DNA of 64,000 nt from Candidatus Aldehydirespirator sp. (lineage in GTDB: Bacteria; Actinomycetota; Acidimicrobiia; Acidimicrobiales; Aldehydirespiratoraceae). A program made the translations under genes and the position numbers. Below, piece by piece: positions 4,749 to 60,436 of this stretch; positions within the stretch are counted from its first letter, which is position 1, and each line of letters opens with the position of its first letter. The notes beneath the pieces were generated by a model. It made no database searches and had not been told where the DNA came from. It saw only the letters and a list, made by a program, of their open reading frames with translations. The stretch is taken from the NCBI GenBank assembly GCA_965221605.1, contig CBDCSK010000016.1, positions 444,132 to 508,131 on the forward strand, written 5' to 3'.

Positions 4749-6989
4749 CTAACTGTCTCGACTGTCTCGGCCGAACGGGTCAGCGTCGTCGCGGTCCTGC
4801 TCGACGTCGTCTGGTCGGTGGTCTGCGTCGTCGAAGAAGGGGTCTTGCAGCGCGGGATCAGGCTCCGCCTGATCCGACGCCGCTGGATCCGTCCCGGTGG
4901 CGTCCGCCGCACCCGCGGTGTCGCTGCTCTCCGGTACCGAGACACCAGTTTGGGCCGAGGCACGGTGCTGCTCCCACGCCGGCGTTGCCTCACCGACCGC
5001 GTCTGCGATCCGGTCGCGCCTGGTGTCGTCGTCGTCGAAGGGCAGGTCCCACACAATGACACGTGGATCGTGATCGGTATCGTGAACTACCCAGCCCCTC
5101 TCAAGATCCGGCCCGATCACCGCTTCGACGCGGCCGCGCCTGGGACGCTTGTGTCCGGCCGGGCCGATGCAGTCCCCGGACGCTTCCGACGACGCTCGCA
5201 ACTGCGGTGCGCCGCCCCGCAGCAGCGGCAGCCACGCCGACCGTAGCCGCACGCCCCTGATGGTGGCCGACGGCTTGCGCTGCTGTAGCTCCATGCAGCT
5301 GTGGGACGGATCGGGCGCCGGCAGTGGTACGCCCTCGACGTCGCCGCCGTCGACGACAGGCAGCACCGCATAGTCCGATGAACTCAACGGCTGCCACGGC
5401 CGCAGTCGCCAGGCGATCCAGAACCTCGCCACGGCGGCGGCCGCGAGCAGCGCGGCCAGCATGGGCAAGAACTTGAGCAGCGGGTTCTCCGGTGGCGGCG
5501 GCACGGGTATGGTCTTCTTCTCGCACAGGTGCTCACGCTCAAGAGCGCCGATGAGCCGCCGGAGTTTCTCGAAGTCCGGGGTGCCAGCCGGAACGCCCGA
5601 GCGCGCCAGCAATTCGTCCACGGCCTCGGGCTCATCGACGGCGCACAGCATGAGAACCAGCGACAACTCGACATCGCGGTCGGGTGGAACGTGCACCGTG
5701 ATGGGGTCGGTGCAGACCTCCGTTCCCCCTCCGGTCACCGAGCCTGGGATCGTGCAGGCCCATTGGCCGACCTCGGCACTCGTTGCGTCGCGAGAGGTGC
5801 CGTCCTTCTCGTCGCGGAACCTCACAGATTGCAGGTCCATACGCGCCGGCAGCTTGCCCGGCGAGACTGACACCAGAATGCTCTTGACGTCGACGGTGTC
5901 GACCGGGGGGCTGATCTCCTCCATCGCGAGGTTCGACGGCAACCAGCGGGCGTCCGGATCGATGATCGGGTCGAGTTCGGTCGCGAGCAGCACGGACCTG
6001 CGCTCCCGACCCAGCGCCTCGGCGAGGGCCTCGCTTCTCGCTCCATAGCCTGCGGAGTCCGCTTCATATCCGAGGCGCTCCAGCAGCCCCACAGCGGAGC
6101 CAGAGGACTCGGTGATGGTCAGTGGGATGCCCAACTTCATCGTCGGCCTGAACGGTTGGTTGGCGCTGACTTCGATGGAGATGGGCTCGGGACAGGTGAA
6201 CCTGCTCGCACCGCCGGCCGCCGCCGGAACTTCACAGGTCCATTCTGCATTAGCGACAGCGACGTCGACGGCCGCTGCAGAGTCCGTATAGGAGTCCTGC
6301 TCGACGAGTTCAACACCCGCGGCGGCGAGGCTCAGCGTTGCCGGGATCTCACCGGCAACGGCGCTCACCGCGAATCCCGCTCCGCTCCAATCATGCTGCG
6401 GATCGCCGAGGGTCACGTCAGTGGGCAGCCAGCGGATGCCGGAATCGAGGGGCAGACAGAACAGGGGGTCCGCAGACCTGCCGTCGGTCACATCCAGCAG
6501 ATACGAGGCTTCGCGTTCGGTGAGGTCGAGCCGCCCGACGTCACGGGCCCACACCAGCGGCTCGGGCGCTCCGGCATACGTGAATGTCTGGCTCAACACC
6601 GCAACGAGAGCGATACCGCCGCGCTGCGTCAGCGCGTCGCGCAGGTTCGTGCCGTTGCCTCCTCGGTCGGGGCTGTCCCAGTGGACGAGTTCACCGAAGA
6701 TGTCCGGCAGTGAGAAGCGGCGCGTGTCCTGCGCCACAACGAGCGGCTCCCCGGTGAGCGATTGTCGGGTCGGGTAGACCGGTTCTCCGTCACCAGCGTC
6801 CACACGGAGCCGAAACTCGATGTCGGAGTAGTTCTGAGTCGGGTAGTTCGCCACGAAGCCGCTCACGCTGCACTGGTTGTCGATCCCGAAGCTGTCGATG
6901 AACGGCGAGTCCTCGCGCTGTACCCGCACGGCCGCTGCCGCCCGCCGGGCGTCTTCCTGCGCGGCGGGAGTGTCCCCGAAGAACAGCAC
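4749..6989 (-). CDS. single-pass membrane protein with duplicated ~145-aa Cys-pair module and acidic C-terminal tail
   Basis: 746-aa ORF with GTG start. One hydrophobic helix LKFLPMLAALLAAAAVARFWIAW (5406..5477). Two internal repeats each carry W-x-C-x13-C-x-[DE]-P-I. The tail carries DPFF and DPFG motifs. Same frame as the upstream vWA ORF. Confidence 0.8.
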   Translation of the reverse strand: MLFFGDTPAAQEDARRAAAAVRVQREDSPFIDSFGIDNQCSVSGFVANYPTQNYSDIEFRLRVDAGDGEPVYPTRQSLTGEPLVVAQDTRRFSLPDIFGELVHWDSPDRGGNGTNLRDALTQRGGIALVAVLSQTFTYAGAPEPLVWARDVGRLDLTEREASYLLDVTDGRSADPLFCLPLDSGIRWLPTDVTLGDPQHDWSGAGFAVSAVAGEIPATLSLAAAGVELVEQDSYTDSAAAVDVAVANAEWTCEVPAAAGGASRFTCPEPISIEVSANQPFRPTMKLGIPLTITESSGSAVGLLERLGYEADSAGYGARSEALAEALGRERRSVLLATELDPIIDPDARWLPSNLAMEEISPPVDTVDVKSILVSVSPGKLPARMDLQSVRFRDEKDGTSRDATSAEVGQWACTIPGSVTGGGTEVCTDPITVHVPPDRDVELSLVLMLCAVDEPEAVDELLARSGVPAGTPDFEKLRRLIGALEREHLCEKKTIPVPPPPENPLLKFLPMLAALLAAAAVARFWIAWRLRPWQPLSSSDYAVLPVVDGGDVEGVPLPAPDPSHSCMELQQRKPSATIRGVRLRSAWLPLLRGGAPQLRASSEASGDCIGPAGHKRPRRGRVEAVIGPDLERGWVVHDTDHDPRVIVWDLPFDDDDTRRDRIADAVGEATPAWEQHRASAQTGVSVPESSDTAGAADATGTDPAASDQAEPDPALQDPFFDDADHRPDDVEQDRDDADPFGRDSRDS

Positions 6990-7037
6990 AGACCACTCGC
7001 CCTCCCATTGCCACTGCCACTGGTTGGAGTTGGTCAG

Positions 7038-8237
7038 CTACTCGGCAGCCTGATGGCCGACAATCTGCAGGTCGCTCGGGTAGTTCGACCGTGTGAAGAA
7101 GCCGAACGGATTGACAGGCAGGTATCGGCCAGTCTGTTCGCGAGGCCTGATGTCACCGCGCACGCCGATTGAGGGACTGGTGGTCCCGTCAGGGGCTCGT
7201 ACGACCGCAAGCACGTCATCGGGATTCTCAATCTCACGCCCGATGAAAGTGAGGTCTACGAAGGCGCGGAAGCTCTCGATTCCCGGGTCAAGGTCGAAGA
7301 ACACGATGCATGGGTCGCTCGGACTGCCGTCGCCGCCCGAGCACCGTCCTTCGTCAAGCTGGGTTTGGGACGGCCTCACAGGGTCGGGCATCGGCTCCTC
7401 AGGCGGCTGCGGAGTCCGTCCAATCACCGTCTCGATGAGCTCGCGGAGCACGGTGTTCAGTCTGTCGGCGTCAAAGCTGTCGTAGATCTCGCCCCGAAGT
7501 GGATTGATACATCTGAGCGATGCATCGGCCGGGCTCGCCTGGCCATAGAGGTAGCGCAGCCTGCTGGCCTCCGACTCGCCCTCCCTGAGCTGGACCGCTC
7601 CCACCCAGACATGATCACGCAGTGACTGCATTTCGGGGCTGCTGCACAGCTCGAACAGTTGGCGTTGCTCGCCCGCCTCGTCCTCTGCGGTGGCGTGCTC
7701 GCCGTCAGTGAACCAGATCAGCAGATTGCAGTCGTCAGCACGCGTCGCGAACCGTTCGCGCCAAGCGTCGGTGAGTGCGGCGCCGTAGTCTGTGTACAAG
7801 CCCGAGTCGGTGGCGATTGTGTCGACGGAGTCGCCCAACCGCGAGTAGACCTCGCTCGCGGCATACCATCCCGCCTGGCGGGAGTAGCTTGCATCGAAGG
7901 TGTCGAGCGCGACCTCAATGTTGGCGTCCTCGGGGTAGCTGAGGCTGAGCCCTTCGATGACTTGCAAGGCGTCGCTGGTGCCAGCAGATCGCAAATTGCC
8001 TGGGTCGGTAGTCCTCAGGCTGCCCGAAGTGTCGAGCAGGATGAGCAGGTTGATTCTCAGGGCACGATCGCCAGCAGTCACGGTGCACACGTCTTGCACA
8101 TCCACGCCAGTCTCCGCGCTCGCATGCGGCGCAGCCAATGCTGCGATCGGCATCGCGGCGCTGGCCGCGACAGCCAGGAGCGCGCCGACACGCCGAACTG
8201 GTATCACGGCGTCGCGAGACCTTTCGCAGCCAGCCAT
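7038..8237 (-). CDS. secreted von Willebrand factor A (vWA) domain protein with MIDAS motif
   Basis: Signal peptide VIPVRRVGALLAVAASAAMPIAALAAPHASA-ETG. MIDAS DTSGS at 8019..8033. LLIWFTDGEH with TDG at 7701..7709. Start is ATG 8237, or GTG 8207 in a GTGA overlap with the upstream stop. The track start at 8456 is probably too long. Confidence 0.85.
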   Translation of the reverse strand: MAGCERSRDAVIPVRRVGALLAVAASAAMPIAALAAPHASAETGVDVQDVCTVTAGDRALRINLLILLDTSGSLRTTDPGNLRSAGTSDALQVIEGLSLSYPEDANIEVALDTFDASYSRQAGWYAASEVYSRLGDSVDTIATDSGLYTDYGAALTDAWRERFATRADDCNLLIWFTDGEHATAEDEAGEQRQLFELCSSPEMQSLRDHVWVGAVQLREGESEASRLRYLYGQASPADASLRCINPLRGEIYDSFDADRLNTVLRELIETVIGRTPQPPEEPMPDPVRPSQTQLDEGRCSGGDGSPSDPCIVFFDLDPGIESFRAFVDLTFIGREIENPDDVLAVVRAPDGTTSPSIGVRGDIRPREQTGRYLPVNPFGFFTRSNYPSDLQIVGHQAAE

Positions 8238-8761: not shown

Positions 8762-9187
8762 ATGGGGTCCATGGACAGCGGGACGGCCACGACAGTGCTG
8801 ACCATCCTCGGGACGTCCTTCGGCGCCATCCTGGCCTCGCTGATAACGCTGATGGTGGCCTCGATCCGCATCCAGCACCGGGACAGCACCGAGACTCGCC
8901 GGCTCATCACCGACGCCGGCAAGGAGAACCGGGATCTCATCGACCAGGCCCGCAAGGAGAACCGGGATCTCATCGACCAGGCCCGCAAGGAGAACCGGGA
9001 CCTGATCGACAAGAACCGCGACCTGATCGACAAGAACCGGGACCTGATCGAGAGGAACCACGGCGCCGTGATCAGCATCCTCGGCGACGCCCGGGAACGG
9101 CTCGCTCGCATCGAGGGCCACCTGCGGATCGGCCAGCCCGCGGCCGACGATCCCGAATCGGACGGCAACAGCCGCGAGGCTGCCTGA
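8762..9187 (+). CDS. membrane-anchored coiled-coil protein with tandem KENRDLIDQAR / KNRDLID repeats
   Basis: ORF 8738..9187. GGAAGGG lies 5 nt upstream of ATG 8762. N-terminal TM segment TATTVLTILGTSFGAILASLITLMVASI. Divergent from the operon, with only ~40 bp between the two starts. Confidence 0.6.
   Translation: MGSMDSGTATTVLTILGTSFGAILASLITLMVASIRIQHRDSTETRRLITDAGKENRDLIDQARKENRDLIDQARKENRDLIDKNRDLIDKNRDLIERNHGAVISILGDARERLARIEGHLRIGQPAADDPESDGNSREAA
8921..9052 (+). repeat. in-frame tandem repeat: 2 perfect 33-bp units, one 24-bp unit, two 21-bp units
   Basis: aaggagaaccgggatctcatcgaccaggcccgc at 8921..8953 is repeated exactly at 8954..8986, followed by shortened variants up to 9052. 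Confidence 0.9.
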
Positions 9188-18901: not shown

Positions 18902-20071
18902 TTACCGGGCCGGAGGAGCGTAGATCAGGCCGCCGTCGAGCCAGCCGGCGTTGGCCGAGCCCTCGCGGGTCAACCCGACCGGGTTCAGGTGGCGGGCGTA
19001 GATCTCGTCGTAGTTCCCGACCTGGGCGATCACCTGGTAGAAGGCGTCGGGGACCAGACCCATGTTCGACTGCTGCTCGTCGTCGGCTGCGCCGAGCAGG
19101 CGGGCCGCCTCGGCGTCGGGCGGGTTGGCCGCCATGTCGGCGACGTTGGCCGAGGTGATGCCCTTCTCGTCGGCGATGATGGTGGCGTACACCGTCCAGT
19201 TGACCACGTCCGCGAAGCGGGACTGGTTCTGACCGTAGGTCGGGCCCAGGGGCTCCTTCGAGATGGGCGTGGCTGGGAAGATCACCCAGTTCTCACCGGC
19301 GGGCTGCTGGTTGGCCTTGCGCCCGACCAGTGCCGAGCCGTCCGTCGTGATGACGTCGCAGGCGCCGTTGATGAAGTTCTCGGTGACCTGGTCGAAGTCC
19401 TGGTACGTCGTGAGCTGAATCGAGATCCCGGCGGCGTCGGCCGCGTCGGCGATGTTCTGCTCGGTGGTCGTGCCGGCGTTGGTGCATACCACCGCGCCGG
19501 CGATGTCGACCACCTGGGAGGCTCCCGAGAAGCCGGCGGACTCGCGGGCCATGAGCTGCTGGCCGTCGTAGTAGGTAGTGGGACCGAAGTCCATGCCGAC
19601 CTCGGTGTCACGGCTCTGGGTCCAGGTCGTGTTGCGCATCAGCACGTCAACCTCGCCCGTCTGCACCGCAGTGAACCGCTCGGCCGCGGTCAGGGGCGTG
19701 AACTCGACCGCGCCGGCGTCGCCGAACAGCGCCGCGGCCACCGCACGGCAGTAGTCGGCGTCGAAGCCGGTCTGGGAGCCGTCGGGCTGGGTCTCAGAGA
19801 AGGCCACCGCCGAACCGGACACGCCGCAGTGCAGGTCGCCGCGCGCCAGGACTGTGTCGAGCAGGTCCCCGTCCTGCGTGTCCGCGATGGCGTCGGCCGC
19901 GGTGGTCGTGGTCTCCGCGGGTGCTGCGGCCGTGGTCTCCGGAGCCGTTGTGTCCGTCGCTGCCGTGGTGCCGGTGTCGCTCTCGCCGTCGTCGCCGCAG
20001 GCAGCCGCGATGAGCGTTACCGCGAGGATGACGGCTGGCACGCGCCAGACCAGAGATTTCTTTAGAGTCAC
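18902..20071 (-). CDS. amino-acid ABC transporter substrate-binding lipoprotein
   Basis: GTG start at 20071 with GGAGGG 4 nt upstream. Lipobox LIAAAC. The track start at 20137 is probably too long. Confidence 0.9.
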   Translation of the reverse strand: MTLKKSLVWRVPAVILAVTLIAAACGDDGESDTGTTAATDTTAPETTAAAPAETTTTAADAIADTQDGDLLDTVLARGDLHCGVSGSAVAFSETQPDGSQTGFDADYCRAVAAALFGDAGAVEFTPLTAAERFTAVQTGEVDVLMRNTTWTQSRDTEVGMDFGPTTYYDGQQLMARESAGFSGASQVVDIAGAVVCTNAGTTTEQNIADAADAAGISIQLTTYQDFDQVTENFINGACDVITTDGSALVGRKANQQPAGENWVIFPATPISKEPLGPTYGQNQSRFADVVNWTVYATIIADEKGITSANVADMAANPPDAEAARLLGAADDEQQSNMGLVPDAFYQVIAQVGNYDEIYARHLNPVGLTREGSANAGWLDGGLIYAPPAR

Positions 20072-20218: not shown

Positions 20219-20987
20219 TCAGCGTGCCGGTGGCGCATAGATGAGGCCGCCGTCGCTCCAGCTTGCGTTGACGGAGCCGCGCGTCAAGACCGCCGGTTCG
20301 AGGTGGCGGGCGACGATCTCGCCGTAGTTTCCCACCTGCGAGATGGCCCGGTGGAAGGCGTCGGGAGCCAGGCCCATGGCCGACTGCAGCTCCCCCTCAC
20401 CGCCGAGCAGCCGGCCCGCCTCCGCATCAGGCGGGCCGGCGGCCACCTCAGCCATATTGCCGGAGGTGATCCCCTTCTCGTCCGCGATGATCGTGGCGTA
20501 GACCGCCCAGTTCACGACGTCAGCGAAGCGAGACTGGTTCTGCGGGTACACCGGGGCCAGCGGTTCCTTGGAGATCGGTATGGCCGGGAAGATCACCCAC
20601 CCCTGGTCGTCGGGCTGCTGCTTCGCCTTGCGGCCGGCCAGCGCCGAGCCGTCGGCGGTGGCCACGTCGCAGGCGCCGCTGATGAAGTTCTCGATGACGG
20701 CGTCGAAGTCCTCGAGGGTGGTGAGCGTTATGTCGATGCCGGCGGCCTCGGCGGCATCAGACGCCGCAGACCAGCCTGCCGCGCTCTTGCACCTTCTGCA
20801 GCAGGTCGCCGTCGCCGCTGTCCTCGACGACGGCCCCGGTCGTCGTCGCGGTCTCCGGGGCCTCGGTCGCCGCCGGCTCGGGCGTGCCCACGGGCTCCGC
20901 GCCGGTGGTGTCCTGCGAATCCGGGTCGCCACAGGCCAACACCGCCCACGCGACGACCCCGAGCGCCAGCAACAGCCCCCGGCTCAC
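20219..20987 (-). pseudogene. degraded paralog of the amino-acid substrate-binding lipoprotein (internal deletion plus frameshift)
   Basis: The N-terminal piece (20757..20987, lipobox AVLACGD, ...RGRLVCGV*) and the C-terminal piece (20219..~20770, SDAAEAAGIDITLTT...LIYAPPAR) lie in different frames. Both align to the intact neighbour 18902..20071, but ~150 aa of the middle are missing. Confidence 0.8.
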
Positions 20988-20992
20988 AGCCC

Positions 20993-22747
20993 TTACAGAT
21001 ACTGGCCGGTCTGCACCCGCTCGATCGAGCGTCCCCCGGAGGCCTCCTCGTCGTGGTCGCTCGACACCAGCGTGCGCACGAACACGATGCGCTCGCCCTT
21101 CTTGCCCGAGATGCGGGCCCAGTCGTCGGGGTTGGTGGTGTTGGGCAGGTCCTCGTGCTCCTTGAACTCCTGGCGCACCGAGGCCAGCAGGTCGGAGGTC
21201 ACAATGCCGCGGGCGCCGCCGGAGATCTCCCGCTTTATGGCCAGCTTCTTGGCTCGCCGCACCACATTCTCGATCATCGCCCCCGAGGCGAAGTCCCGGA
21301 AGTACATGATCTCCTTGTCCCCGTTGGAGTAGGTCACCTCCAGGAACTGGTTGGTGTCGGCGGGCCGGTACATGTCGTCCACGGTCTGCTCGATCATGCC
21401 CCGCACGGCCTTGTCGGCGTCGCCGCCCCCGACGGTGTCGACCATCTCGGACGCGATCGGCAGGGCGGGCACCAGGTAGCGGGCGAAGATGGCCGCCGCG
21501 GCCTCGGCGTCGGGCCGCTCGATCTTGATCTTCACGTCGAGGCGGCCCGGTCTCAGGATGGCCGGGTCGATGAGGTCCTCCCGGTTGGAGGCTCCGATCA
21601 CGATCACGTTGCGCAGCGCTTCGACGCCGTCGATCTCGGCCAGCAGCTGGGGGACGATCGTGGACTCGATGTCGGAACTGATCCCGGAGCCGCGGGTGCG
21701 GAACAGCGACTCCATCTCGTCGAAGAACACGATCACGGGCCAGCCCTGCTCGCTCTTCTCCCGGGCCCTCTGGAACACCAGGCGGATCTGCCGCTCAGTC
21801 TCGCCCACGTACTTGTTGAGCAGCTCGGGGCCCTTGATGTTCAGGAAGAAGCTGCGGGCATTGGCGTCGCCGGAGAGGTCCGAGACCTTGTTGGCCAGGC
21901 TGTTGGCCACCGCCTTGGCGATCAGGGTCTTGCCGCAGCCGGGCGGACCGTAGAGCAGCACTCCCTTGGGTGCGGGCAGGTCGTAGTCGGCGAACAGGGC
22001 GTGATGGACGAACGGCAGCTCGACCGCGTCGGTGATCTGCTCGATCTGGGAGTCGAGCCCGCCGACGTCGTCGTAGCTGATGTCGGGCACCTCCTCAAGG
22101 ATCAGGTCCTCGACCTCGGGCCGGGGCAGGCGCTCGATCACCAAGTCCCCCGAGGCGTCGATCAGCACGTTGTCGCCGCTGCGGATCGGCCCCGCGGCCA
22201 CGACCGCGCTCAACTCGACCACCCGCTCCTCGTCGGCCCGCCCCAGCACCAGTGCCCGGTCGCCGCCCGGCAGCAGCTCCTTCACCGTGGCCACCTCACC
22301 GGTGCGGTCCGGCCGGCGGGCCAGTACCACGCTGAACGACTCGTTGAGGGCTACTTCCTCACCTGCGGACAGATCCTCGGCCAGGTCGGGATGGACGGCC
22401 ACCCGCATCTTGCGGCCGCTGGCGCGCACGTCGACGGTGCCGTCGTCGTTGCAGCCGAGGACGGTCCCGTAGCCGCTGGGCGGCTGGGTGAGCTTCTCCA
22501 CCTCCTCGCGCAACGAGCCGATGTGCTCGCGGGCGTCGCGCAGCATGGTGGTGAGCCGCTCGTTCTGGGACACCGCCTGGGTGAGCCGACCCTTGGTGTC
22601 GGCCAGGCGCTCCTCGAGCATGCGGACCCGCTTGGGCGCGTCGTGGAGCCGGCGGCGCAGGGAGGCCACCTCTCCCTCGAGCTCGGAGACGAGGCGGCGC
22701 AGGCGTTCAAGATCCTGCTTCGAGTTGTCGCTGCCGGTCTCGCTCAC
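20993..22747 (-). CDS. arc: proteasome-associated AAA ATPase ARC/Mpa
   Basis: N-terminal coiled coil, Walker [10 protein letters not shown]-terminal ...VQTGQYL docking motif. Confidence 0.95.
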
Positions 22748-23000
22748 GGCTCACCTCCTCGCTGCCCGGTCCGATGGATCCGACGACACCCTAGACTGCA
22801 CCGGCGCCAGACTGCGATTCAACCCCTGAACGCGGCCGTCCGAGCAATTGGCGAGAGGGGGCCGTCGCGGGTTGGCATCGGCGGAGCAGGGTAGGCAGGC
22901 TTAGGACTCCGGCCCCGCTATGCTTGCAGTCAGTTGCTGCGAGCCGCGGGCGCTCGCAGTCCGATTCAACCGCCCGCTGAAGAGAGGTATCTCCGCCGAC

Positions 23001-23234
23001 ATGAAGGTCTGGATTGATCAGGACTTGTGTACGGGCGACGGCTTGTGCGAGGAGATCGCCCCCGACGTGTTCACCCTCCTCGACGACGGCTTGGCTTACG
23101 TTGTCGAGGACGGCCACGTTTTTTCTGACCCCGGCGGACCAGACGGCCTGGCCGTGGTGCCTGCCGGCCAGGAGGAGGCCACCATCGAGTCGGCCGAGGA
23201 GTGCCCCGGGGAGTGCATCTTCATCGAGGTCTGA
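23001..23234 (+). CDS. small ferredoxin
   Basis: MKVWIDQDLCTGDGLCEEIAPDVF...EECPGECIFIE. ATG at 23001 lies within the longer track ORF. Confidence 0.85.
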   Translation: MKVWIDQDLCTGDGLCEEIAPDVFTLLDDGLAYVVEDGHVFSDPGGPDGLAVVPAGQEEATIESAEECPGECIFIEV

Positions 23235-23298: not shown

Positions 23299-23328
23299 GC
23301 CGGATTCGCACCGCCTACCCGCTCGGCC
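23299..23328 (+). repeat. solo copy of the tail module of the interspersed repeat
   Basis: gccggattcgcaccgcctacccgctcggcc compared with the tail of copy C, gccggattcgcgtgcctatccgctcggcc. Confidence 0.5.
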
Positions 23329-23330
23329 GG

Positions 23331-24188
23331 TCAATCGCAGTCGGGGACTCCGGCGGGCTGATCCAGGTCGGAGGAGGCCAGCAGCGCGGCGAGCGGGCCC
23401 GACCGTGTGGCGTAGGCCACCCCTCCTCCCCCGCGGCGGGAGGCGCCCCAGGCGACGCCCACTGCGGTGGTCCGGCCGTCGACGCCGGTCACCAGCGCGG
23501 CGCCGGAGTCACCCACCTCGGTCTGGGCGGCGAGGAGCCACGACTGCCGCTCGATGCGCTCGTCGCCGTTCACGATCTCCGTGCGCACCGTGACCGGACG
23601 GTCGATGCGGAACGGCGTCGGGTCCGGTGAGCCCTCGGCCTCCCAGGCCAGCACCGCGCCGACGGTGCCGTCGGGAACGGCCTCGCTCAGCGGCAGGGGC
23701 CGCAGGCCGGCGCCGGAGACCCGCAGCACAGCCAGATCGTTCACGGGATCGAAGGCCACCATCACGGCGTCGAACTCCCGGCCGTCGTGAAGCTCGACGG
23801 TCGGCTCGTCCATGCCGATCATGAGATGGGCGATGGTGACGACGAAGTCGCCGTCTGCGACCGCGAAGCCGCTGCCCTCGCGCACGATCCCGCGGCACGC
23901 CGGACCGTAGACCCTCACCGACGACTCCACGGCCACGGCCAGCTCCGCTTCCGGGAGGCCGTGGTCGTCCGGCACCGGGCCCGGGTCGGGAGGGTCGTCG
24001 AGCGGGGGCCTTATCGACGAGGGTGGCGGGACCGTCCCAGCCTCGACTGGCGTCTGGGGTTGACGATCACCCGGCGCCGTAGTCCCGCCCTCGAGCAGGG
24101 TGACGGCAGCGATGGCCGTGCCCGCAACGACCACCGCAATGGCCGATACTGCCGCGAGAAATCGCGCGCGCGGGCGCAATCCGGTCAC
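23331..24188 (-). CDS. membrane-anchored trypsin-like (S1) serine protease
   Basis: Catalytic triad contexts TIAHLM, NDLAVL and GDSGAAL. TM anchor FLAAVSAIAVVVAGTAIAAVTLL. Start placed at GTG 24188, because 24200..24292 is a repeat element rather than coding sequence. Confidence 0.75.
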   Translation of the reverse strand: MTGLRPRARFLAAVSAIAVVVAGTAIAAVTLLEGGTTAPGDRQPQTPVEAGTVPPPSSIRPPLDDPPDPGPVPDDHGLPEAELAVAVESSVRVYGPACRGIVREGSGFAVADGDFVVTIAHLMIGMDEPTVELHDGREFDAVMVAFDPVNDLAVLRVSGAGLRPLPLSEAVPDGTVGAVLAWEAEGSPDPTPFRIDRPVTVRTEIVNGDERIERQSWLLAAQTEVGDSGAALVTGVDGRTTAVGVAWGASRRGGGGVAYATRSGPLAALLASSDLDQPAGVPDCD

Positions 24189-24199
24189 GTTGCGGGGGC

Positions 24200-24292
24200 G
24201 TGTCTCCCGCTCTTGTTCGCTGCGCTCACGGGCCGCTCGGGCCACGGCCTCGCCCGTATGGGCCGGATCTGCTCGCCTACCCGCTCGGCCTC
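24200..24292 (+). repeat. interspersed ~95-bp repeat, copy A
   Basis: gtgtctcccgctcttgttcgctgcgctcacgggccgctcgggccacggcctcgcccgtatgg... The first 62 nt are identical to copy B in inverted orientation. Confidence 0.85.
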
Positions 24293-24310
24293 GGATCCGC
24301 CGCCCCGGCG

Positions 24311-25087
24311 TCACTGCTCGGTCAGCCGGCTGACGGTGAGGAAGCCGGTGTGGGCCACCATCCGGTGGTTGGGGCGCACCGCGTCGCCCTCCACATGCCA
24401 GCCCCGCTGGAGGACCTCGACCGTCTCGTGGAGGTCGAACGGCGAGTCGTCCAGCGCCCGGCGCAGTCTCTGGACCTGCACGATGCTCGGCGTATAGGCC
24501 AGCAGGATCCCGCCGGCGCGCAGGGCCACCGAGGCGTGGGGCACCACCTGCCAGGGTTCGGGCAGGTCCAGCACCACCCGGTCGAGCCCGGTCTCGTCGA
24601 TGCCCTCATAGACGTCGCGCACCTCGGTGCGGTACCGCTCCAGCGCCCCGGACCCGCAGAAGCGCTCCACGTTGGCCCTGGCCCGGGCGCAGAAGTCCTC
24701 GCGCCGCTCGTATCCCGTCACCACCGCGCCCGCCCGCAGCAGCGCCATCGACAGCGCCCCTGAGCCGACCCCGGCCTCCAGCACCCGGGCGCCAGGGAAT
24801 ATGTCGGCCAGCATCAGGATGGGGCCTATGTCCTTGGGATAGATGACCTGCGCGCCCCGGGGCATCTTGAGCACCGCGTCGGCCAGCGTCGGTCGCAGCG
24901 CCAGGAAGTACGAGCCCCGGGTGGACCGCAGCCTGGTCCCCTCCGGCACCCCGATGATCTCGTCGTGGGAGATCACCCCGGTATGGGTGTGGAACTCGCG
25001 ACCGGAGGCCAGGTCGAACAGGTAGCGGCGGCTCTTGCGGTCGATGAGCAGGACCGGCTCGCCCGGCTCGAACGGCCGGCCGGTCAT
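24311..25087 (-). CDS. trmI: tRNA (adenine58-N1)-methyltransferase TrmI
   Basis: [23 protein letters not shown]..., SAM motif VLEAGVGSGALS. ATGA overlap with the upstream stop. The track start at 25507 is too long. Confidence 0.9.
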   Translation of the reverse strand: MTGRPFEPGEPVLLIDRKSRRYLFDLASGREFHTHTGVISHDEIIGVPEGTRLRSTRGSYFLALRPTLADAVLKMPRGAQVIYPKDIGPILMLADIFPGARVLEAGVGSGALSMALLRAGAVVTGYERREDFCARARANVERFCGSGALERYRTEVRDVYEGIDETGLDRVVLDLPEPWQVVPHASVALRAGGILLAYTPSIVQVQRLRRALDDSPFDLHETVEVLQRGWHVEGDAVRPNHRMVAHTGFLTVSRLTEQ

Positions 25088-26022
25088 CGATCGCCGCGAT
25101 CGGTCAGGCGCACCGGCGCCGGCCCGGCTACCCGCTCGGACAGGCGGCAGAAGGCGCACACCCCGGCATCGGTGGGCGACCCGCAGCGTTCGCACGGCGC
25201 GAGCTCGCCGCGGTCGCGCTCGACCTCGGCCCGGAAGCGGGCCGAGGCCCTGTCCAGGAAGCCGAAGTAGAAGTCGTGCTTTGCGCCGGGCGACTCGACC
25301 TCTATGTCGTTCAGCGCGGCCTTGTAGGCCAGATGCTTGTTGCCGGCCGCCATGGGGCATTCGTCGACGATGTAGTCGATCCCCCGCAGCAGGCAATAGG
25401 CCGCGGTCTCCCGCTCGCCCAGCCGGACCAGCGGCTTGATCTTGCGGGGGAAGCCGTCGCGGGCTGCCAGCACCGGCAGCTGCCGCCCCAGATACTCGGT
25501 CTGCCACCGCAGGGTGTTGCCCATCAGCACGGCCGCCTCGTCGTCGAGGTTGTGACCGGTGGCGAGAGCGTCATAGCCGCCGCCGCGGGCCGCTTCGTCG
25601 AAGAGGTGCCGCTTGGACAGACCGCAGGCCGAGCACGGCGCCCTCCTGGCGGCCCGAGCGCCGCCGGGAATGTCGAAGCCATGGGCCTCCGGCAGGTCGA
25701 CGGTGTGGAGGGTAAGGCCGCGACCCTCGGCGTAGCGGCGGGCGTAGCTCTCGGACTTCTCGCTGTAGTCGCCGATGCCAAGCCCGAGGTAGAAGCCGTC
25801 GGCGGCATAACCGAGCTCGGTGAGCAGGTCCCACACCGCCAGGCTGTCCTTGCCGCCCGACACCGCCACCAGCACCCGGTCGCCGTCGGCCAGCATGTCG
25901 AAGCGGCGGATGGCCTTGGCCACCTGGTCCCGGCACAGGCGCAGGAAGTGCTCGGCGCAGAAGTTGGCGTTGTGGCGGCGCACGTCTATCACCGCAGGCC
26001 CGCGGCACACCCGGCACTTCAT
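25084..26022 (-). CDS. PP-loop tRNA 2-thiolation ATPase, TtuA/TtcA family
   Basis: PP-loop SGGKDS. N-terminal CRVC...C..H and C-terminal CERC...CAFC zinc-finger-like clusters. Confidence 0.85.
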
Positions 26023-26240
26023 GGCGCTCCAGCCCGCCCGTCGCCGGCGCCGCCGGAGATCACGCTGCGCACCTCCACGTCGGAGCGGTCCGGAAGCGTC
26101 CGGTCGCCCGGAACCAGCTCACCGTCGCAGATCACCAGATGCGATTCCCGGTTCAGGCCGAGACGGTCGAGGAGGGCGCGCACCGTCACCGGTCCCTGCA
26201 CCTCCAGTTCCCTGGTCGGGTTGCGCAGCACGACTCGCAT
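26019..26240 (-). CDS. ThiS/MoaD/TtuB-like ubiquitin-fold sulfur carrier with a 9-aa extension after the GG
   Basis: 73 aa, [29 protein letters not shown]...[23 protein letters not shown] overlap with the TtuA-like start. Confidence 0.7.
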
Positions 26241-26266
26241 GCGAGCTGCGTGGCCGCCCCGAAGCC

Positions 26267-26443
26267 TCAGGAGCCGTCGGGTTCGACGTGGCGGATCTCG
26301 ATACCGGTGGACGGCTCCAGCCGCTCCGACAGCACGGTCACCGGTTCTCGGGGTCCGACCGCCCGCCGCACCAGCTTGACCGCGCTGGTTGCTACGAACG
26401 CCGCGAACCAGAACCGCGAGCTGCCGAGAAGGCCCCTGCGCAC
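26267..26443 (-). CDS. possible small membrane protein (58 aa from GTG)
   Basis: High GC3. Hydrophobic segment [14 protein letters not shown]. The longer track ORF runs through repeat copy B and is therefore trimmed. Confidence 0.35.
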
Positions 26444-26487
26444 CGCCTGGCGGCTGATCCAGGCGGCCGCGGTCCGCCCGCCAACCA

Positions 26488-26580
26488 GAGGCCGAGCGAA
26501 TAGGCAAGCCAACCCGATCCATACGGGCGAGGCCGTGGCCCGAGCGGCCCGTGAGCGCAGCGAACAAGAGCGGGAGACAC
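26488..26580 (-). repeat. interspersed ~95-bp repeat, copy B (inverted relative to A)
   Basis: Its reverse complement equals copy A for 62 nt. The tail ends in ...gcctattcgctcggcctc. Confidence 0.85.
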
Positions 26581-26638
26581 CCCCTTTCACCGCGAGCGAC
26601 TCCCACCTTCCTGCAGACGCTACAAGAGGCCCCACCGG

Positions 26639-26860
26639 TCAGATCCGCCTTACTTCGACGACTGTGCGGCGGAGCCGGCCGGCCCTGCGCCCCAGCAGGT
26701 AAGCGAGACCGACCAGGACGCTGGCAGCCGCGGCCGCTCCGTAGGCGACCTTGACCAGCAGCGGCTGGGTCTCGCGGTCGATACCGGCTTGGAGGTCGCG
26801 CAGCGCCTCCTCCAGCGAGTCGCGGGTTACCCGCTCGGACTCCTCGCTCGCCGGGCTCAT
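26639..26860 (-). CDS. small protein with C-terminal TM helix
   Basis: [63 protein letters not shown] overlap with the upstream gene. Confidence 0.55.
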
Positions 26861-39299: not shown

Positions 39300-40985
39300 A
39301 TGCAGAACTTCAGACGGACCTTCGGCGCGGCCCGCAATCCCCGCCTTCTGGCTGCCTCGGCGGCCACCGGCGTGATCGTGGCGCTGCTCGTGGCCGCCTT
39401 CGAGACGGTGGCGCTGCACATGGTGCTCGAGCGGGTGCTGGAACAGCATCTCGCGGTGCTGGCGCTGGCACCGATCGTGGGCATCGCGGCCTCCAAGCTG
39501 GTGCTGCGAACGGTCGGCGGAGACACCTCCAGCCGCACGGCTGACGAGTACATCCGGGCGTTCCACGAGCGCCATCCCAGCATCCCGATGCGGTACCTGC
39601 CGGCCAAGCTGCTGGCCGGGATCGCCACCATCGGCGGGGGTGGCGCGGTGGGTCTCGAGGGCCCGTCGATCTACGCCGGGTCCTCGACGGGGCTGTTCGT
39701 CCACGAGCGCCTGGGGCGCTTCTTCCGGCGCGACGAGGCCCGGATACTGCTCACCGCCGGGGCCGCGGCCGGGGTGGCCGCGGTGTTCAAGACACCGGCC
39801 ACCGGGGTGATCTTCGCCATCGAGGCCCCCTACCGCGACGACGTGACCCCCCAGGCGCTGCTGCCGTCGCTGATCGCGTCGGCGGCCAGCTACGTGACCT
39901 TCGTCTTCCTGGTCGGCAGTACTCCGGTGGTCCCGTTCCTCGGCGAGGGCGGGATCGGCGCCGGTGGTGGCTCGGTGCTGGATGTCGAGATCGGGGATCT
40001 GCTGGGTGCGCTCATCCTGGGGATCGCGGCCGGGCTCGGAGGCCGTGGCTTCGCCTGGCTGGTGCGCCGGGCCAAGCACGCCACCCACACGATCTCCTGG
40101 CCGAGACGGGCTCTCGCGGCGGCGGCGGTCATGGCCGGGCTGGTGCTGCTGGCCGACGCCGCCTTCGACGAGGTCCTCAGCCTCGGCCCCGGCATCAGGG
40201 CCATGGAGTGGGTCGTGCAGCAGGACGCCCTGGGACTGATAGCGCTGCTGTTCGGGGTGAGGATCGCGGCCACGCTGGCCACGGTCCTGGGCGACGGCGT
40301 CGGGGGGCTGTTCATCCCGCTGGCGACCCTGGGCGTGATCGTGGGACAGTTCGTCGGGGTGGCCCTGGACGCGGAGTCCACCGGCCTCTACGCCACCCTG
40401 GGCCTCGCCGCCTTCCTCGGAGCCGGCTACCGGGCGCCCATCGCGGCCGTCATGTTCGTGGCCGAGTCCACCGGAGCGGCCGCTTTCGTCGTGCCCGCAC
40501 TGGTGGCCGCGGCCGTGAGCCAGGTGGTGGGCGGCCCGTCCTCGGTGGCCGAGTACCAGCGATCCAAGCGGATGGGCCACCTCGAGCAGCGCTTCACCCT
40601 TCCCCTGAGCTCCATTCTCACGACCGACGTGCTGACCGTCCCACCCGACGCCACCGTCTCGGAGTTCGTGTATATGCACGTTCTCGGCCGGCGTGAGCGG
40701 GTGGTCCCGGTGGTGTCGGGCAGCGCCTACCTGGGGATGGCCCAGCTGTCACAGCTGTCCGCGGTGAGCCGTGACGAGTGGGAGACCACCTCGGTGGAGT
40801 CGATGATGACGACGGACCTGCCGGCCGGCTCCCCGTCCTGGACGGTGCGCGACGCCGTGGTCGCCATGGAGGGCGCCGATGTCGAGGTCCTGGCCGTGAC
40901 CGACAGCTCAGGCAACTTCATAGGCGTGGTCACCGAGGACGACATCGTGCGCCTGGGAGAGATCCTGGACGAGACCGAGGGGTGA
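39300..40985 (+). CDS. ClC-type chloride channel/antiporter with C-terminal CBS pair
   Basis: GGGAVGLEGPSIYAG and GVGGLFIPLATLG selectivity-filter motifs. Two CBS-like repeats at the C-terminus. Confidence 0.9.
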   Translation: MQNFRRTFGAARNPRLLAASAATGVIVALLVAAFETVALHMVLERVLEQHLAVLALAPIVGIAASKLVLRTVGGDTSSRTADEYIRAFHERHPSIPMRYLPAKLLAGIATIGGGGAVGLEGPSIYAGSSTGLFVHERLGRFFRRDEARILLTAGAAAGVAAVFKTPATGVIFAIEAPYRDDVTPQALLPSLIASAASYVTFVFLVGSTPVVPFLGEGGIGAGGGSVLDVEIGDLLGALILGIAAGLGGRGFAWLVRRAKHATHTISWPRRALAAAAVMAGLVLLADAAFDEVLSLGPGIRAMEWVVQQDALGLIALLFGVRIAATLATVLGDGVGGLFIPLATLGVIVGQFVGVALDAESTGLYATLGLAAFLGAGYRAPIAAVMFVAESTGAAAFVVPALVAAAVSQVVGGPSSVAEYQRSKRMGHLEQRFTLPLSSILTTDVLTVPPDATVSEFVYMHVLGRRERVVPVVSGSAYLGMAQLSQLSAVSRDEWETTSVESMMTTDLPAGSPSWTVRDAVVAMEGADVEVLAVTDSSGNFIGVVTEDDIVRLGEILDETEG

Positions 40986-41002
40986 CCGGCCGGAGAGGCC
41001 GG
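40986..41002 (+). terminator. possible GC-rich hairpin after the ClC gene (no U tract)
   Basis: ccggcc-ggaga-ggccgg immediately after the stop codon. Confidence 0.25.
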
Positions 41003-41056
41003 CCTCCCGGGCCTCAGGGGCCACGCGGATAGGCGAGAGCCCGTCGCGGTGCAGCG

Positions 41057-41152
41057 GTGTCATTTCCCGCTCTTGTTCGCTGCGCTCACGGGCCGCTCGG
41101 GCCACGGCCTCGCGCCGTATGCGCCGGATTCGCGTGCCTATCCGCTCGGCCT
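41057..41152 (+). repeat. interspersed ~95-bp repeat, copy C
   Basis: gtgtcatttcccgctcttgttcgctgcgctcacgggccgctcgggccacggcctcgcgccgtatgcgccggattcgcgtgcctatccgctcggcctc. Abuts the left end of the second IS. Confidence 0.85.
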
Positions 41153-42783
41153 CTTAGCCTGAATCCACCGGTGGGCTGGTCGGGGTGGCTGGTTTTGGTT
41201 GTTGTGGGCGGTGTTGGTCTGGTTTGGCTGTTGTGGGTGCTGTTGGGGCGTGTGGGGTCGGCGGCTGGGGTTGTGGCTGGTTGGTGGCGCTGGGGGTGTG
41301 TGCTGGGTGGCGCCGGGTCCCGGGGGGTTGTGCTTTAGATGAGTTGGGGCAGGTTGCGGGTGTGGGCCAGCGCGGTGGTGAATTGGTGTGCCCAGGGCCA
41401 GTTGAGCGGCAGGCGGAGTTTGTGTCGGTGGCTGTGGTTGACGAGGCGTCCGGGGACGGCGAGCAGCCGCCGGCGGACGGTGGCGGCGACGGTGAGCCGT
41501 TCGGGGTGGTTGGTGTGTGCGAGGCGGGCGGTCCAGCGGGCGAGGTTGTGGGCGAGCGCGGCGCAGGCGAGGTGGGCGCCGTTGGCGAAGAATCTTCCCG
41601 AGGGGCAGTGGGCTAGTCCATTGTCTTTGAGGTCTCTGATGGCGAGCTCGACTCGGGCGTGGCCGCGGTGGTAGGCGTCGGCGGTTTCGGTGTCGAGGCC
41701 GTCTCTGTTGGTGACGAAGCAGTGGTGGCGCCAGTTGGGCCACAGCTCGCGTTGGGGGCCTTCTGGGAGGCGGGTGCGGCGCACGACGAGGCGCAGCTTT
41801 CGGGGGCCTTGGGGGTCGCGGCGGCTCGTTGTGATGGCGCTCTCGGCGACCTGGGCTTCCCCGTCGGGGTAGGCGATCGGCGTCCAGGCGGTTTCGTCGA
41901 TGCCGTCGATGGCTGCTTTGACTTTGGCGTTGTTGGGGATCGTGACCGACCAGCGGGCCTTGTATGCGTCGAGCTTCGCGATCAGCGCATAGGAGAAGAA
42001 CCCCGCGTCGGCGCGCACCGTCACCGCCGCGTGCGGCGCGAGGCGCCTGAGCCTCGCGAGGGTCTCCGCGGCGAAGCGGACATGGCCGCGTTGAGAGGAC
42101 CCCGACCGCATCCGGGCGTGGACGACCTCGCCGGTGTCGTCGCGCACTGCCGCCAGCGGGTGGTATCCCCAAACCTTGGTGTGGCCATAGGCCGCGCCCT
42201 GCTTGGACTTGCCGTGGACCTCACACACCGTCGAGTCCAGATCCACCGTCATCTCCGCCGCTGCCGGCGCCGCGCCCACAGACCACGCCCGGCCCAGCGC
42301 CAGCTCCAGAGCCCGGTCGAGCTGACGGACATGGCCGAACGTGAAGGACCGCAGCCACGTCCCCAACGTCGACGGAGCCGCCACCGCGAACGGCAGCACC
42401 GCTGAAGCGGACCCGGCCCGCAGCCTGTCGGCGTCGCCGATGTGTGACCCTCCCACCAGCATCGACGCCACCACCGACAACGCCTTCGCCCCGGACCCCC
42501 GCCCCGACTCCGGCGGGCGCACCACCTCATCGATGAGCGACTCCAAACCCAGCCGGCCCATCACCGTGCCCGCCAACAGAAGCCCCGCGTCGGCCACCAG
42601 CGAAGCGTCGTCGAACACCGCCTCGATCCCGTCGATCCCGCCCGCTATGCTGCTCACAGGAAGTGCCTCCTCACATGGCCAGAATGACCGTTGCTTCAAA
42701 CAGCATTCTCCCCATGTCAGGAGGCCTTTCCGGTGGACGCGCCAACCCCACAAACCTCACCGCATCGGTGGATCCAGGCTTAG
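41153..42783 (-). mobile_element. second, distinct IS1380-family insertion sequence (~1.62 kb) with CTTAG target-site duplication
   Basis: IRs cctgaatccaccggtg (41158..) and catcggtggatccagg (..42778), 14/16 matching. Direct repeat cttag at 41153..41157 and 42779..42783. Confidence 0.85.
41335..42657 (-). CDS. IS1380-family DDE transposase
   Basis: GTG 42657 with GAGGAGG 8 nt upstream. VDLDSTVCEVHGKSKQGAAYGHTKVWGYHPLAAV..ARMRSGSSQRGH aligns with the same block in the first transposase. Confidence 0.9.
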   Translation of the reverse strand: MSSIAGGIDGIEAVFDDASLVADAGLLLAGTVMGRLGLESLIDEVVRPPESGRGSGAKALSVVASMLVGGSHIGDADRLRAGSASAVLPFAVAAPSTLGTWLRSFTFGHVRQLDRALELALGRAWSVGAAPAAAEMTVDLDSTVCEVHGKSKQGAAYGHTKVWGYHPLAAVRDDTGEVVHARMRSGSSQRGHVRFAAETLARLRRLAPHAAVTVRADAGFFSYALIAKLDAYKARWSVTIPNNAKVKAAIDGIDETAWTPIAYPDGEAQVAESAITTSRRDPQGPRKLRLVVRRTRLPEGPQRELWPNWRHHCFVTNRDGLDTETADAYHRGHARVELAIRDLKDNGLAHCPSGRFFANGAHLACAALAHNLARWTARLAHTNHPERLTVAATVRRRLLAVPGRLVNHSHRHKLRLPLNWPWAHQFTTALAHTRNLPQLI

Positions 42784-42971
42784 TCGTCGTCGGCGGCCAA
42801 CTCCGCCTCAGCCAGCTCCTCGTCCTCGAAAGCCTCCGCCCACGATGCGTGCTCGGGCTTGACGTAGTCGTCCGGTTCGTTGAACGATTCGATCAGACCC
42901 TGGAGGTCATCCGCCTGCGAGCGCTTGAACTTGCGGGCTTCCTCATACCTTCGGTGTCGACCCTTCTTCAC
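42780..42971 (-). CDS. small basic-then-acidic hypothetical protein (63 aa from GTG)
   Basis: VKKGRHRRYEEARKFKRSQ...EDEELAEAELAADDD. Its stop TAA lies inside the IS target duplication. Confidence 0.5.
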   Translation of the reverse strand: MKKGRHRRYEEARKFKRSQADDLQGLIESFNEPDDYVKPEHASWAEAFEDEELAEAELAADDD

Positions 42972-43064
42972 GGTCCCAACTCCCGGTTTGACGATTTCGC
43001 AGCGTCGGGAAGTGTACCGGACGCCTGCGACAGGCCCACGCGTGCGCTTGTTGCAGGCCAACGA

Positions 43065-50646: not shown

Positions 50647-50768
50647 CCCCGGTTTCCCGCTCTAGCACGTTCCAAGCGAACCGCGGCGTTCCACTCGGCC
50701 TCTGGCCGCTACGATCCGGCGCCGTGGCGACAGTGGCCAAGATCGGCGATCTCGCCGCCGAGGCCGGG

Positions 50769-60315: not shown

Positions 60316-60436
60316 CTGCCGGAGCGAACCGCCAGGCCGGGGGGTGGCGACGGGTCCGGGCGGTCGACAATGGGGCGAAGCCCCGTCGACCGAACGGAGC
60401 CCGGCGACAGGACCCGCCGGCCGGGACGAACCTGCG

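Follow-up and report, generated by a model that had tools for sequence, protein, structure and literature searches.

A probable new family of non-autonomous transposons (MITEs) with a strongly conserved core in uncultured Acidimicrobiia

What kind of sequence recurs, in both orientations, at the ends of unrelated genes in the genome of an uncultured actinobacterium? The window analysed here, a stretch of 64,000 nucleotides from Candidatus Aldehydirespirator sp., raises this question. Re-reading of the sequence placed three copies of a repeat at 24200-24292 (+ orientation, copy A), 26488-26580 (- orientation, copy B) and 41057-41152 (+ orientation, copy C), exactly where the first-pass annotation had reported them, and the 62 nt quoted there are identical in copies A and B, B being inverted. 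A core of 49 nt, TCCCGCTCTTGTTCGCTGCGCTCACGGGCCGCTCGGGCCACGGCCTCGC, is identical in all three copies. A 25-mer taken from this core matched three times in the window, whether exact matches were required or three mismatches were allowed, compared to 0.00 expected from dinucleotide shuffles. Two further features proposed at the outset, a solitary tail and an upstream arm of copy C, are also real: the window contains four occurrences of the tail motif GCCTAYYCGCTCGGCC compared to 0.04 expected, the fourth at 23313-23328, and the arms of copy C (41013-41034 and 41136-41157) are 82% complementary over 22 nt. The repeat had however been given a size of about 95 bp, which is too short. In a 155-column profile the element proper measures about 135-146 bp, and the 'core plus tail' described earlier corresponds to its right two-thirds only.

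In order to follow the repeat in other genomes, the 20-mer CTCTTGTTCGCTGCGCTCAC was used as a seed against one genome per species (GTDB r232). It returned at least 115 loci, which are designated below by the letter L and a number. A profile search showed that 111 of the at least 115 listed loci carry the element, with 178 profile matches among the loci listed and up to seven in a single 8-kb locus, some of these being tandem core modules. The four exceptions, which contain the 20-mer only, comprise one locus of another actinomycete and three from a single Planctomycetota MAG. The hosts, among the matches listed, are about 45 species-level Acidimicrobiia MAGs, named Ca. Aldehydirespirator, Aldehydirespiratoraceae, Ca. 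Poriferisodalis or bins SB06xx, RHO3 and Langseth; the names of these bins suggest that they come from sponge samples. The window and the Ca. Aldehydirespirator contig L042 share 86-93% identity (about 88% overall) over 7.5 kb and were on this basis taken as members of the same genus. Extrapolation from the three full copies and the relics present in 64 kb gives about 100 copies per genome. No Rfam family matched the whole window at the gathering score, and copy C searched at E≤10 yielded only noise. The element was absent from the plasmids, phages and viral contigs searched, where the single viral match was a chance 20-mer, and searches of the literature by taxon, concept and sequence string retrieved no description of it. 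The novelty claimed for the repeat thus stands with respect to Rfam and the searched literature, and the genome search proposed for counting copies and defining ends found it in multiple copies in related genomes (at least 111 loci), with ends redefined by the profile.

The three window copies align over about 137-143 nt with the profile built from related genomes. Copy C is the best preserved. It spans 41014..41156 on the + strand (nhmmer profile positions 3-154, E=1.3e-35), with the element proper at about 41017-41153 between the flanking triplets TCA (41014-41016) and TTA (41154-41156), and it lies downstream of a gene for a ClC channel with a CBS domain (39300-40985, + strand, Pfam). A partly deleted orthologue of this copy is found in L042 at 501-603. 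Copy A spans 24157..24293 on the + strand (profile positions 5-152, E=2e-27), with its core at 24205-24253, its right end GGCCTC at 24287-24292 and a degenerate left arm at 24157-24199. It sits between the stop codon (24311-24313, - strand) of a TrmI/GCD14 gene (24311-25132, - strand, Pfam) and the membrane-anchor region of a gene for a membrane-anchored trypsin-like protease (23331-~24189, - strand, Pfam). Copy B is inverted relative to A and spans 26486..26624 on the - strand (profile positions 4-153, E=2.4e-30), with its core at 26527-26575 and again a degenerate left arm. This copy occupies an intergenic spacer bounded on one side by the end of a gene for a small membrane protein (26639) and on the other by an operon encoding a ThiS/SAMP-like protein (26019-26240, - strand, Pfam) and a TtuA-like protein (25084-26022, - strand, Pfam), upstream of thiS-ttuA. 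The left arms of copies A and B are present but too decayed for an inverted repeat to be detectable in either. These two copies, having lost the left inverted repeat, are probably immobile relics, while copy C is intact and now adjoins an insertion sequence (IS).

Shorter remnants accompany these copies. A solo right end, GCCGGATTCGCACCGCCTACCCGCTCGGCC, lies at 23299..23328 (+ strand) between the ends of a ferredoxin gene (22920-23234, + strand, Pfam) and of the protease gene; an ATPase gene recognized by eye from its translation (20993-22747, - strand) precedes the ferredoxin gene. This relic contains the tail motif exactly and gave a weak profile match (positions 111-149, E=1.1). A weak, probable relic with an internal deletion, TTTCCCGCTCT...TCCACTCGGCCTCTGG, was identified by eye at 50652..50703 on the + strand (profile positions 126-153, E=4.2), and what is probably a degenerate right half of the element, also weak, at 7096..7147 on the - strand (profile positions 94-153, E=0.065).

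The full element consists of an inverted end, a variable left inner segment, the near-invariant 49-nt core, a second variable segment and the other inverted end. Between the flanks (C)TNA on the left and TNA(G) on the right, the consensus reads GAGCGTGCGCGGATAGGTGAG AGCCCGTCGCGTCGCAGCGGTGTCAT TCCCGCTCTTGTTCGCTGCGCTCACGGGCCGCTCGGGCCACGGCCTCGC, followed by the variable segment, of two length classes, and by CTCGCCTATCCGCTCGGCCTC. The left end GAGCGTGCGCGGATAGGTGAG pairs imperfectly with the right end, whose reverse complement reads GAGGCCGAGCGGATAGGCGAG, the two forming terminal inverted repeats of about 22 nt; the termini are GAG...CTC. Counted with both flanking triplets, the two size classes are of about 141 and about 151-152 nt, corresponding to about 135 and about 145-146 nt for the element proper. 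In 41 copies, 77.8% of the arm and inner-stem cells are paired, compared to 35-47% when the partners are slid, and double or compensatory changes of the arms cluster at three pairs, in the GGATAGG/CCTATCC block. The structure often varies: some copies are short and have no left arm, others are minis reduced to the inverted ends, and others again form head-to-tail arrays. Sub-modules of 27 nt and 20 nt have undergone tandem amplification, and a 44-nt core unit forms tandem arrays in L105 and L073. The core itself carries a third CCGCTCGG(G)CC motif resembling the element ends. The element is shorter than about 300 bp and has no coding capacity of its own, and it is conserved at the level of nucleotides and not of codons.

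How did this sequence spread? Both flanks of the element read C-T-N-A-G, and agreement between the left and right flanks exceeded that obtained by permutation, both for the NA dimer (21 of 72 copies, 8.3 expected, z 4.1) and for the whole TNA triplet (13 of 72, 5.2 expected). Comparison of orthologous loci revealed the corresponding insertions. L110 reads TCA[element]TCA where the empty site of L016 has a single TCA, L097 reads TGA[element]TGA where L034 has TCA, and L017 reads TCA[element]TAA where the orthologous L096 lacks the element. The flanking triplets differ in many copies and several filled/empty comparisons are not clean. Differences in presence and absence are frequent between orthologous loci whose flanks are 83-90% identical, and for at least 15 sites one member of a locus pair carries the element while the other has none at the matching place. 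At two sites filled in L042, the window has an unrelated spacer of 41-69 nt, too diverged for a duplication to be read.

The insertions occupy all types of intergenic context (69 tandem, 24 convergent and 23 divergent), and in tandem contexts the element runs 15 times with transcription and 17 times against it, so that no orientation bias is seen. Among 53 cases of a gene running into an element, about 16 have exactly the flanking triplet as stop codon. The element is thus short and non-coding, bounded by terminal inverted repeats and a target duplication, and dispersed in copies that show insertion polymorphism, as are MITEs. From the duplication, the filled and empty sites, the polymorphism and the placement, we conclude that the repeat is probably a non-autonomous DNA transposon that targets CTNAG-like sites and duplicates TNA, and represents a new family of such elements (MITEs) in uncultured Acidimicrobiia. 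This agrees with the earlier suggestion of a DNA-level, MITE- or REP-like element located at gene ends in both orientations, which is borne out by the multiple copies, the inverted repeats, the 3-bp duplication, the presence/absence differences and the unbiased orientation. The element is of an ordinary kind, with an unusually conserved 49-nt centre.

A transposase acting in trans would bind both ends, insert the element at CTNAG-like sites and duplicate the central TNA. In genomes of about 70% G+C, TNA triplets are mostly stop codons or their complements, which may be why the surviving copies accumulate exactly at gene ends and in both orientations. Each insertion would moreover regenerate C-TNA-G at the element ends, and this could account for the head-to-tail arrays as well as for the repeated landing of an IS at the same place, described below. 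A 3-bp T-N-A duplication combined with GAG termini is associated with the IS1031 and IS427 groups of the IS5 family as defined in ISfinder, and the element shows both the 3-bp TNA duplication and the GAG ends. The mobilising transposase therefore probably belongs to the IS5 superfamily (IS1031/IS427-like), a candidate that is drawn from these family features and serves as a lead, since a search of the window and of about 0.9 Mb of related loci did not reveal an autonomous element with matching inverted ends. IS1031-group elements of the IS5 family recognize three nucleotides and are present in Actinobacteria (PMC2516522).

Several candidates for the autonomous partner were considered and set aside. 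Where two element ends are spaced 0.5-3.5 kb apart, they enclose ordinary genes (dehydrogenase, MetK, MFS transporter and others). A tandem repeat of 1,034 bp in L104, perfect in sequence, is no IS but arose by duplication within a gene that, as judged by eye from its translation, encodes a solute-binding protein. The only transposase in the window belongs to an IS1380-type IS (41158..42778, - strand), whose DDE transposase ORF extends over 41335-42753 on the - strand (Pfam DDE_Tnp_1_4, 8.8e-44). The inverted ends of this IS, CCTGAATCCACCGG, are unrelated to those of the element, and it was rejected as the mobiliser. It was inserted precisely where copy C ends on the right, and (C)TTAG is duplicated at 41153-41157 and 42779-42783; the IS now stands between copy C and a small gene at 42780-43061, whose stop codon the element formerly adjoined. 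L042 lacks the IS, and the element there directly adjoins the stop codon of the counterpart of this gene. Ends of the IS1380-type IS, or a short derivative of it, also adjoin element ends in L005, L007, L009, L014 and L022. This recurrence across loci indicates that the CTNAG ends of the element are a preferred target of the IS.

The repeat also affects gene prediction. The peptide common to three ORFs of the window arises when the core is translated from its reverse strand, and the first-pass annotation had regarded the repeat as a source of false ORF extensions. This is reasonable for ORFs 26139..26702 and 40908..41105, which overlap real genes or run antisense to them and are most probably spurious; the former also has a codon-position GC pattern resembling that of non-coding DNA. 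In the protease ORF (23331..24314), residues 8-53 are element sequence, and the first plausible internal start is a GTG at 24189, within the decayed left arm of copy A. As a universal rule, however, the claim fails on L017, where the PriA ORF runs through the element uninterrupted: compared to the L096 orthologue it gains 46 aa in frame without a stop, between the cysteine clusters of the protein. We restrict the claim of in-frame insertion to this orthologue-supported PriA case, as a screen for such insertions in GC-rich DNA is dominated by chance open frames. The element can thus be tolerated in frame within essential genes such as priA, in one case.

Could the element instead act as a coding cassette, an RNA or a repeat of another mobility type? 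A cassette spreading a 19-letter peptide would account for the frame left open in copies A and B, for the 46-aa in-frame insertion in PriA of L017 and for class-1 insertions adding 138 nt, that is 46 codons. The core is however kept at the nucleotide level, without synonymous variation, which makes a consistent coding role unlikely; in addition most copies contain stop codons, the common variant GTGTCATTCCCGC gives a TGA in frame (by eye from the consensus), the copies occupy all intergenic contexts in both orientations, and chance open frames are common at about 70% G+C. We regard the coding explanation as extremely improbable. A structured non-coding RNA or UTR element (riboswitch, sRNA, terminator or mRNA stabiliser) is highly improbable as well. 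Copies at gene ends could often be co-transcribed, the minus strand of copy A is directly upstream of the secreted-protease gene, and on one strand G-T mismatches outnumber A-C mismatches (93 versus 68 and 45 versus 20), but this excess is confounded by fixed wobble positions of the consensus. Relative to transcription, copy A is antisense to copies B and C, which argues against a strand-specific RNA element, and both orientations are used without bias. Rfam gave no match even at E≤10, the structure predicted by RNAalifold is weak (-12.4 kcal/mol) and shows practically no covariation, and the T-run of an intrinsic terminator is absent. The folding check proposed at the outset supported arm-arm pairing as the only structure, and single-sequence folds were unremarkable. 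A riboswitch or 5'-leader preceding the secreted protease was considered on its own and discarded, given the opposite orientation of copies B and C, the empty Rfam search and the lack of an orientation bias in the family as a whole. A REP/REPIN repeat, moved by a RAYT (IS200/IS605-like HUH) on single-stranded hairpins, would also be intergenic, multi-copy and palindromic-ended, would occur in clusters and arrays, and could show the compensatory changes seen in some arms. To our knowledge, REP/REPIN and IS200/IS605 mobility produces no target duplication, while the element has a 3-bp duplication and clean empty sites. Moreover its arms stand about 100 nt apart around a conserved non-palindromic core instead of a short loop, and single copies fold with unexceptional stability (z between +0.8 and -2.2), making this origin very unlikely.

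The core calls for a separate discussion, as the element shows the reverse of the typical MITE conservation pattern, with the core far above the inverted ends. Identity to the consensus is 92-100% for the core in all copies, 98% for the 23 core nucleotides outside the search 20-mer and 92-95% for the core in 49 copies without the exact 20-mer; it falls to 74% in the left inverted end, 61-65% in the left inner segment, 53-56% in the variable segment and 86-88% in the right inverted end. Part of the apparent core conservation reflects ascertainment, because detection was seeded on the core, by the 20-mer and then by a core-dominated profile. Orthologous copies point the same way: in L031, L076 and L109 the core and right end are unchanged and the segment between them has been replaced, and in L002 and L073 the cores are identical at 47 of 49 positions with flanks at 83.5%. 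Core decay is seen in other orthologues (L042 501-603 and the 3' half of L110). We infer that the core is either needed in cis for mobilisation, for example as a putative internal transposase-binding site, or recruited by the host. The former is the simplest guess, because of the third CCGCTCGG(G)CC motif within the core; a host-recruited DNA site is a more interesting one. On this latter reading, the element would be domesticated, its core serving as a cis-acting DNA site under purifying selection, comparable to the REP/BIME sites that bind gyrase or IHF, and transposition would only have been the past means of spread, which is compatible with a MITE origin. Its attraction lies in a core kept at 92-100% in about 45 species, and at 92-95% in the 49 copies found without the 20-mer, when arms are at 53-74%, in the orthologues listed above that keep the core while their surroundings diverge, in the tandem amplification of the 44-nt core unit in L105 and L073, and in the absence of orientation bias, which suits a role at the DNA level. 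Neither a binding protein nor a recognisable motif was identified, however, the core has decayed in the two orthologues mentioned, detection is biased to intact cores, and an appearance of selection could come from gene conversion between copies or from horizontal spread in recent times. We therefore view domestication as possible and rather unlikely. In its most specific form, which we put forward as speculation and consider doubtful, TCCCGCTCTTGTTCGCTGCGCTCACGGGCCGCTCGGGCCACGGCCTCGC would be a selected cis-acting site shared by about 45 species and carried by a stop-codon-seeking MITE to about 100 gene ends per genome. It could be, for instance, a putative platform to which a conserved protein, of the host or a transposase, would bind. 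If this were true, a transposon would have distributed the core over the whole genome as a regulatory or structural module.

Returning to the reading that we favour, a MITE family, these findings document such a family in an uncultured actinobacterial clade, with TNA targets that are mostly stop codons in a GC-rich genome, one IS that targets the ends of another mobile element, and a core kept far beyond expectation for a decaying transposon. For annotation, the element creates spurious ORFs and extensions and at least one real in-frame insertion, and it should be masked or modelled in Acidimicrobiia MAGs. For assembly, a repeat with about 100 copies per genome is likely to break contigs when MAGs of sponge symbionts are assembled from short reads. 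For strain typing, the presence/absence polymorphisms and the arrays of the 44-nt core could mark symbiont populations. The family is a new one of a known kind of element, unusual in its hyper-conserved core, its placement at stop codons, the in-frame insertion in priA and its role as an IS target.

Several known systems share part of these properties. Like Correia elements of Neisseria and REP/BIME/REPIN sequences of Proteobacteria, the element is an abundant intergenic repeat of gene ends, present in both orientations and in arrays, a preferred IS target, and endowed with a conserved internal portion, as these are with conserved internal or protein-binding portions. Correia elements differ by a TA duplication and inverted repeats of 26 bp, compared to the 3-bp TNA and the repeats of about 22 nt found here, and REP/REPIN sequences are short RAYT-mobilised hairpins without duplication, whereas the present element has a TNA duplication and a long non-palindromic core. 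With Rickettsia palindromic elements (RPEs) it shares a behaviour, and not membership: a palindromic-ended repeat lies in frame in an essential gene whose ORF is kept (one case, PriA). Unlike RPEs, which are unrelated in sequence and host phylum, it is mostly intergenic or located at stop codons and has a target duplication. MIRUs are also actinobacterial intergenic repeats that overlap stop and start codons and contain a tandem unit of 40-50 nt in variable number, here 44 nt in L105 and L073. They have no sequence similarity to the element and are not known to carry target duplications or terminal inverted repeats; within operons they show an orientation bias, whereas the element has inverted ends and a duplication and shows no such bias. 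Bacterial MITEs derived from the IS5 family (IS1031/IS427) differ in two respects: the most conserved part of our element is its internal 49-nt core and not its inverted ends, and a search of the window and of approximately 0.9 Mb of related loci yielded no cognate IS sharing its ends. In other respects the resemblance to these MITEs is extensive, including small size, absence of coding capacity, inverted repeats of about 20 nt, a TNA duplication, GAG termini, many copies and insertion polymorphism, and a eukaryotic analogue is provided by the Tourist/PIF-Harbinger MITEs with their TWA duplications.

The right end of copy C of the MITE-like repeat (41014-41156, + strand) is occupied by an IS1380-type insertion sequence (IS), which spans positions 41158-42778 of the window, encodes a DDE_Tnp_1_4 transposase and terminates in the ends CCTGAATCCACCGG. 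It is bordered by a target-site duplication at 41153-41157 and 42779-42783, and its insertion point, (C)TTAG, is the extreme end of copy C. The IS is absent from the orthologous locus on another Ca. Aldehydirespirator contig (L042). The same IS ends also adjoin ends of the repeat in several other genomes (loci L005, L007, L009, L014, L020 and L022), and at L022 a derivative of about 260 bp is flanked by two copies of the repeat. The termini of the repeat thus seem to be a target of the IS1380-type IS. On the other side of copy C, a short GC-rich hairpin, CCGGCCGGAGAGGCCGGCC, lies between it and the stop codon of the ClC gene (40986-41013); the orthologous spacer in L042 lacks this hairpin.

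Copies of the repeat were also found beside genes and, in one case, within a gene. In the region 23299-24293, a trypsin-like protease gene (23331 to about 24189) lies between copy A and the solo right-end relic, which share the + orientation. The syntenic segment of a related genome (L100, 1388-2441), which is about 70% identical to the window, carries no protease gene, and its ferredoxin-trmI gap measures only about 76 nt. The protease gene may have been gained or lost together with its flanking repeats. In priA of OZ244872.1 (L017, 7657-7797), one copy is inserted in-frame and adds 46 residues without a stop codon, between zinc-binding cysteine pairs; the orthologous priA of OZ244832.1 (L096, about 6022-6030) is devoid of the element.

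Other repeats were distinguished from this family. An intergenic element of about 116 nt (window 60320-60435) folds as a long hairpin (-72.4 kcal/mol) and matches positions 520-618 of L019, from another Acidimicrobiia MAG, at 97% identity across 99 nt; it probably represents a second palindromic repeat family, unrelated to the MITE-like element. The core 20-mer CTCTTGTTCGCTGCGCTCAC is present in three loci of one Planctomycetota MAG, JAZKFE01 (L029, L036 and L112), where the sequence after it forms an unrelated hairpin, CCCAGGTTCGAGAACCTGGG; this is therefore a separate repeat of that genome, and the 20-mer in common may reflect either coincidence or a shared module.

Larger and coding-type duplications were also observed. 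Coding-type tandem repeats with periods of 33 nt and 21 nt (AGAACCGGGA(T/C)CT(C/G)ATCGAC...) occupy 8877-9062 of the window, and a segment of about 540 bp is duplicated at 18906-19447 and 20223-20758 (about 77-80% identity, 1.3 kb spacing), the pair being probably paralogous genes. In L104, a perfect 1,034-bp tandem duplication within one gene (5057-6090 and 6104-7137) results in an ORF of 865 aa whose halves are identical to each other, a solute-binding protein as judged by eye from its translation; this duplication is either a real recent event or an assembly artefact.

Sub-modules of the MITE-like element itself are amplified in tandem at L105 (4980-5202), L073 (1555-1729), L024, L010, L094, L096 and L115. 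The amplified units include a 44-nt core unit in 5-6 copies, a 27-nt unit (CCGCTCTTGTTCGCTGCGCTC..) in triplets and a 20-nt unit (GGGCCGCTCGGGCCGCGGGC), and these sub-modules behave like a variable-number tandem repeat.
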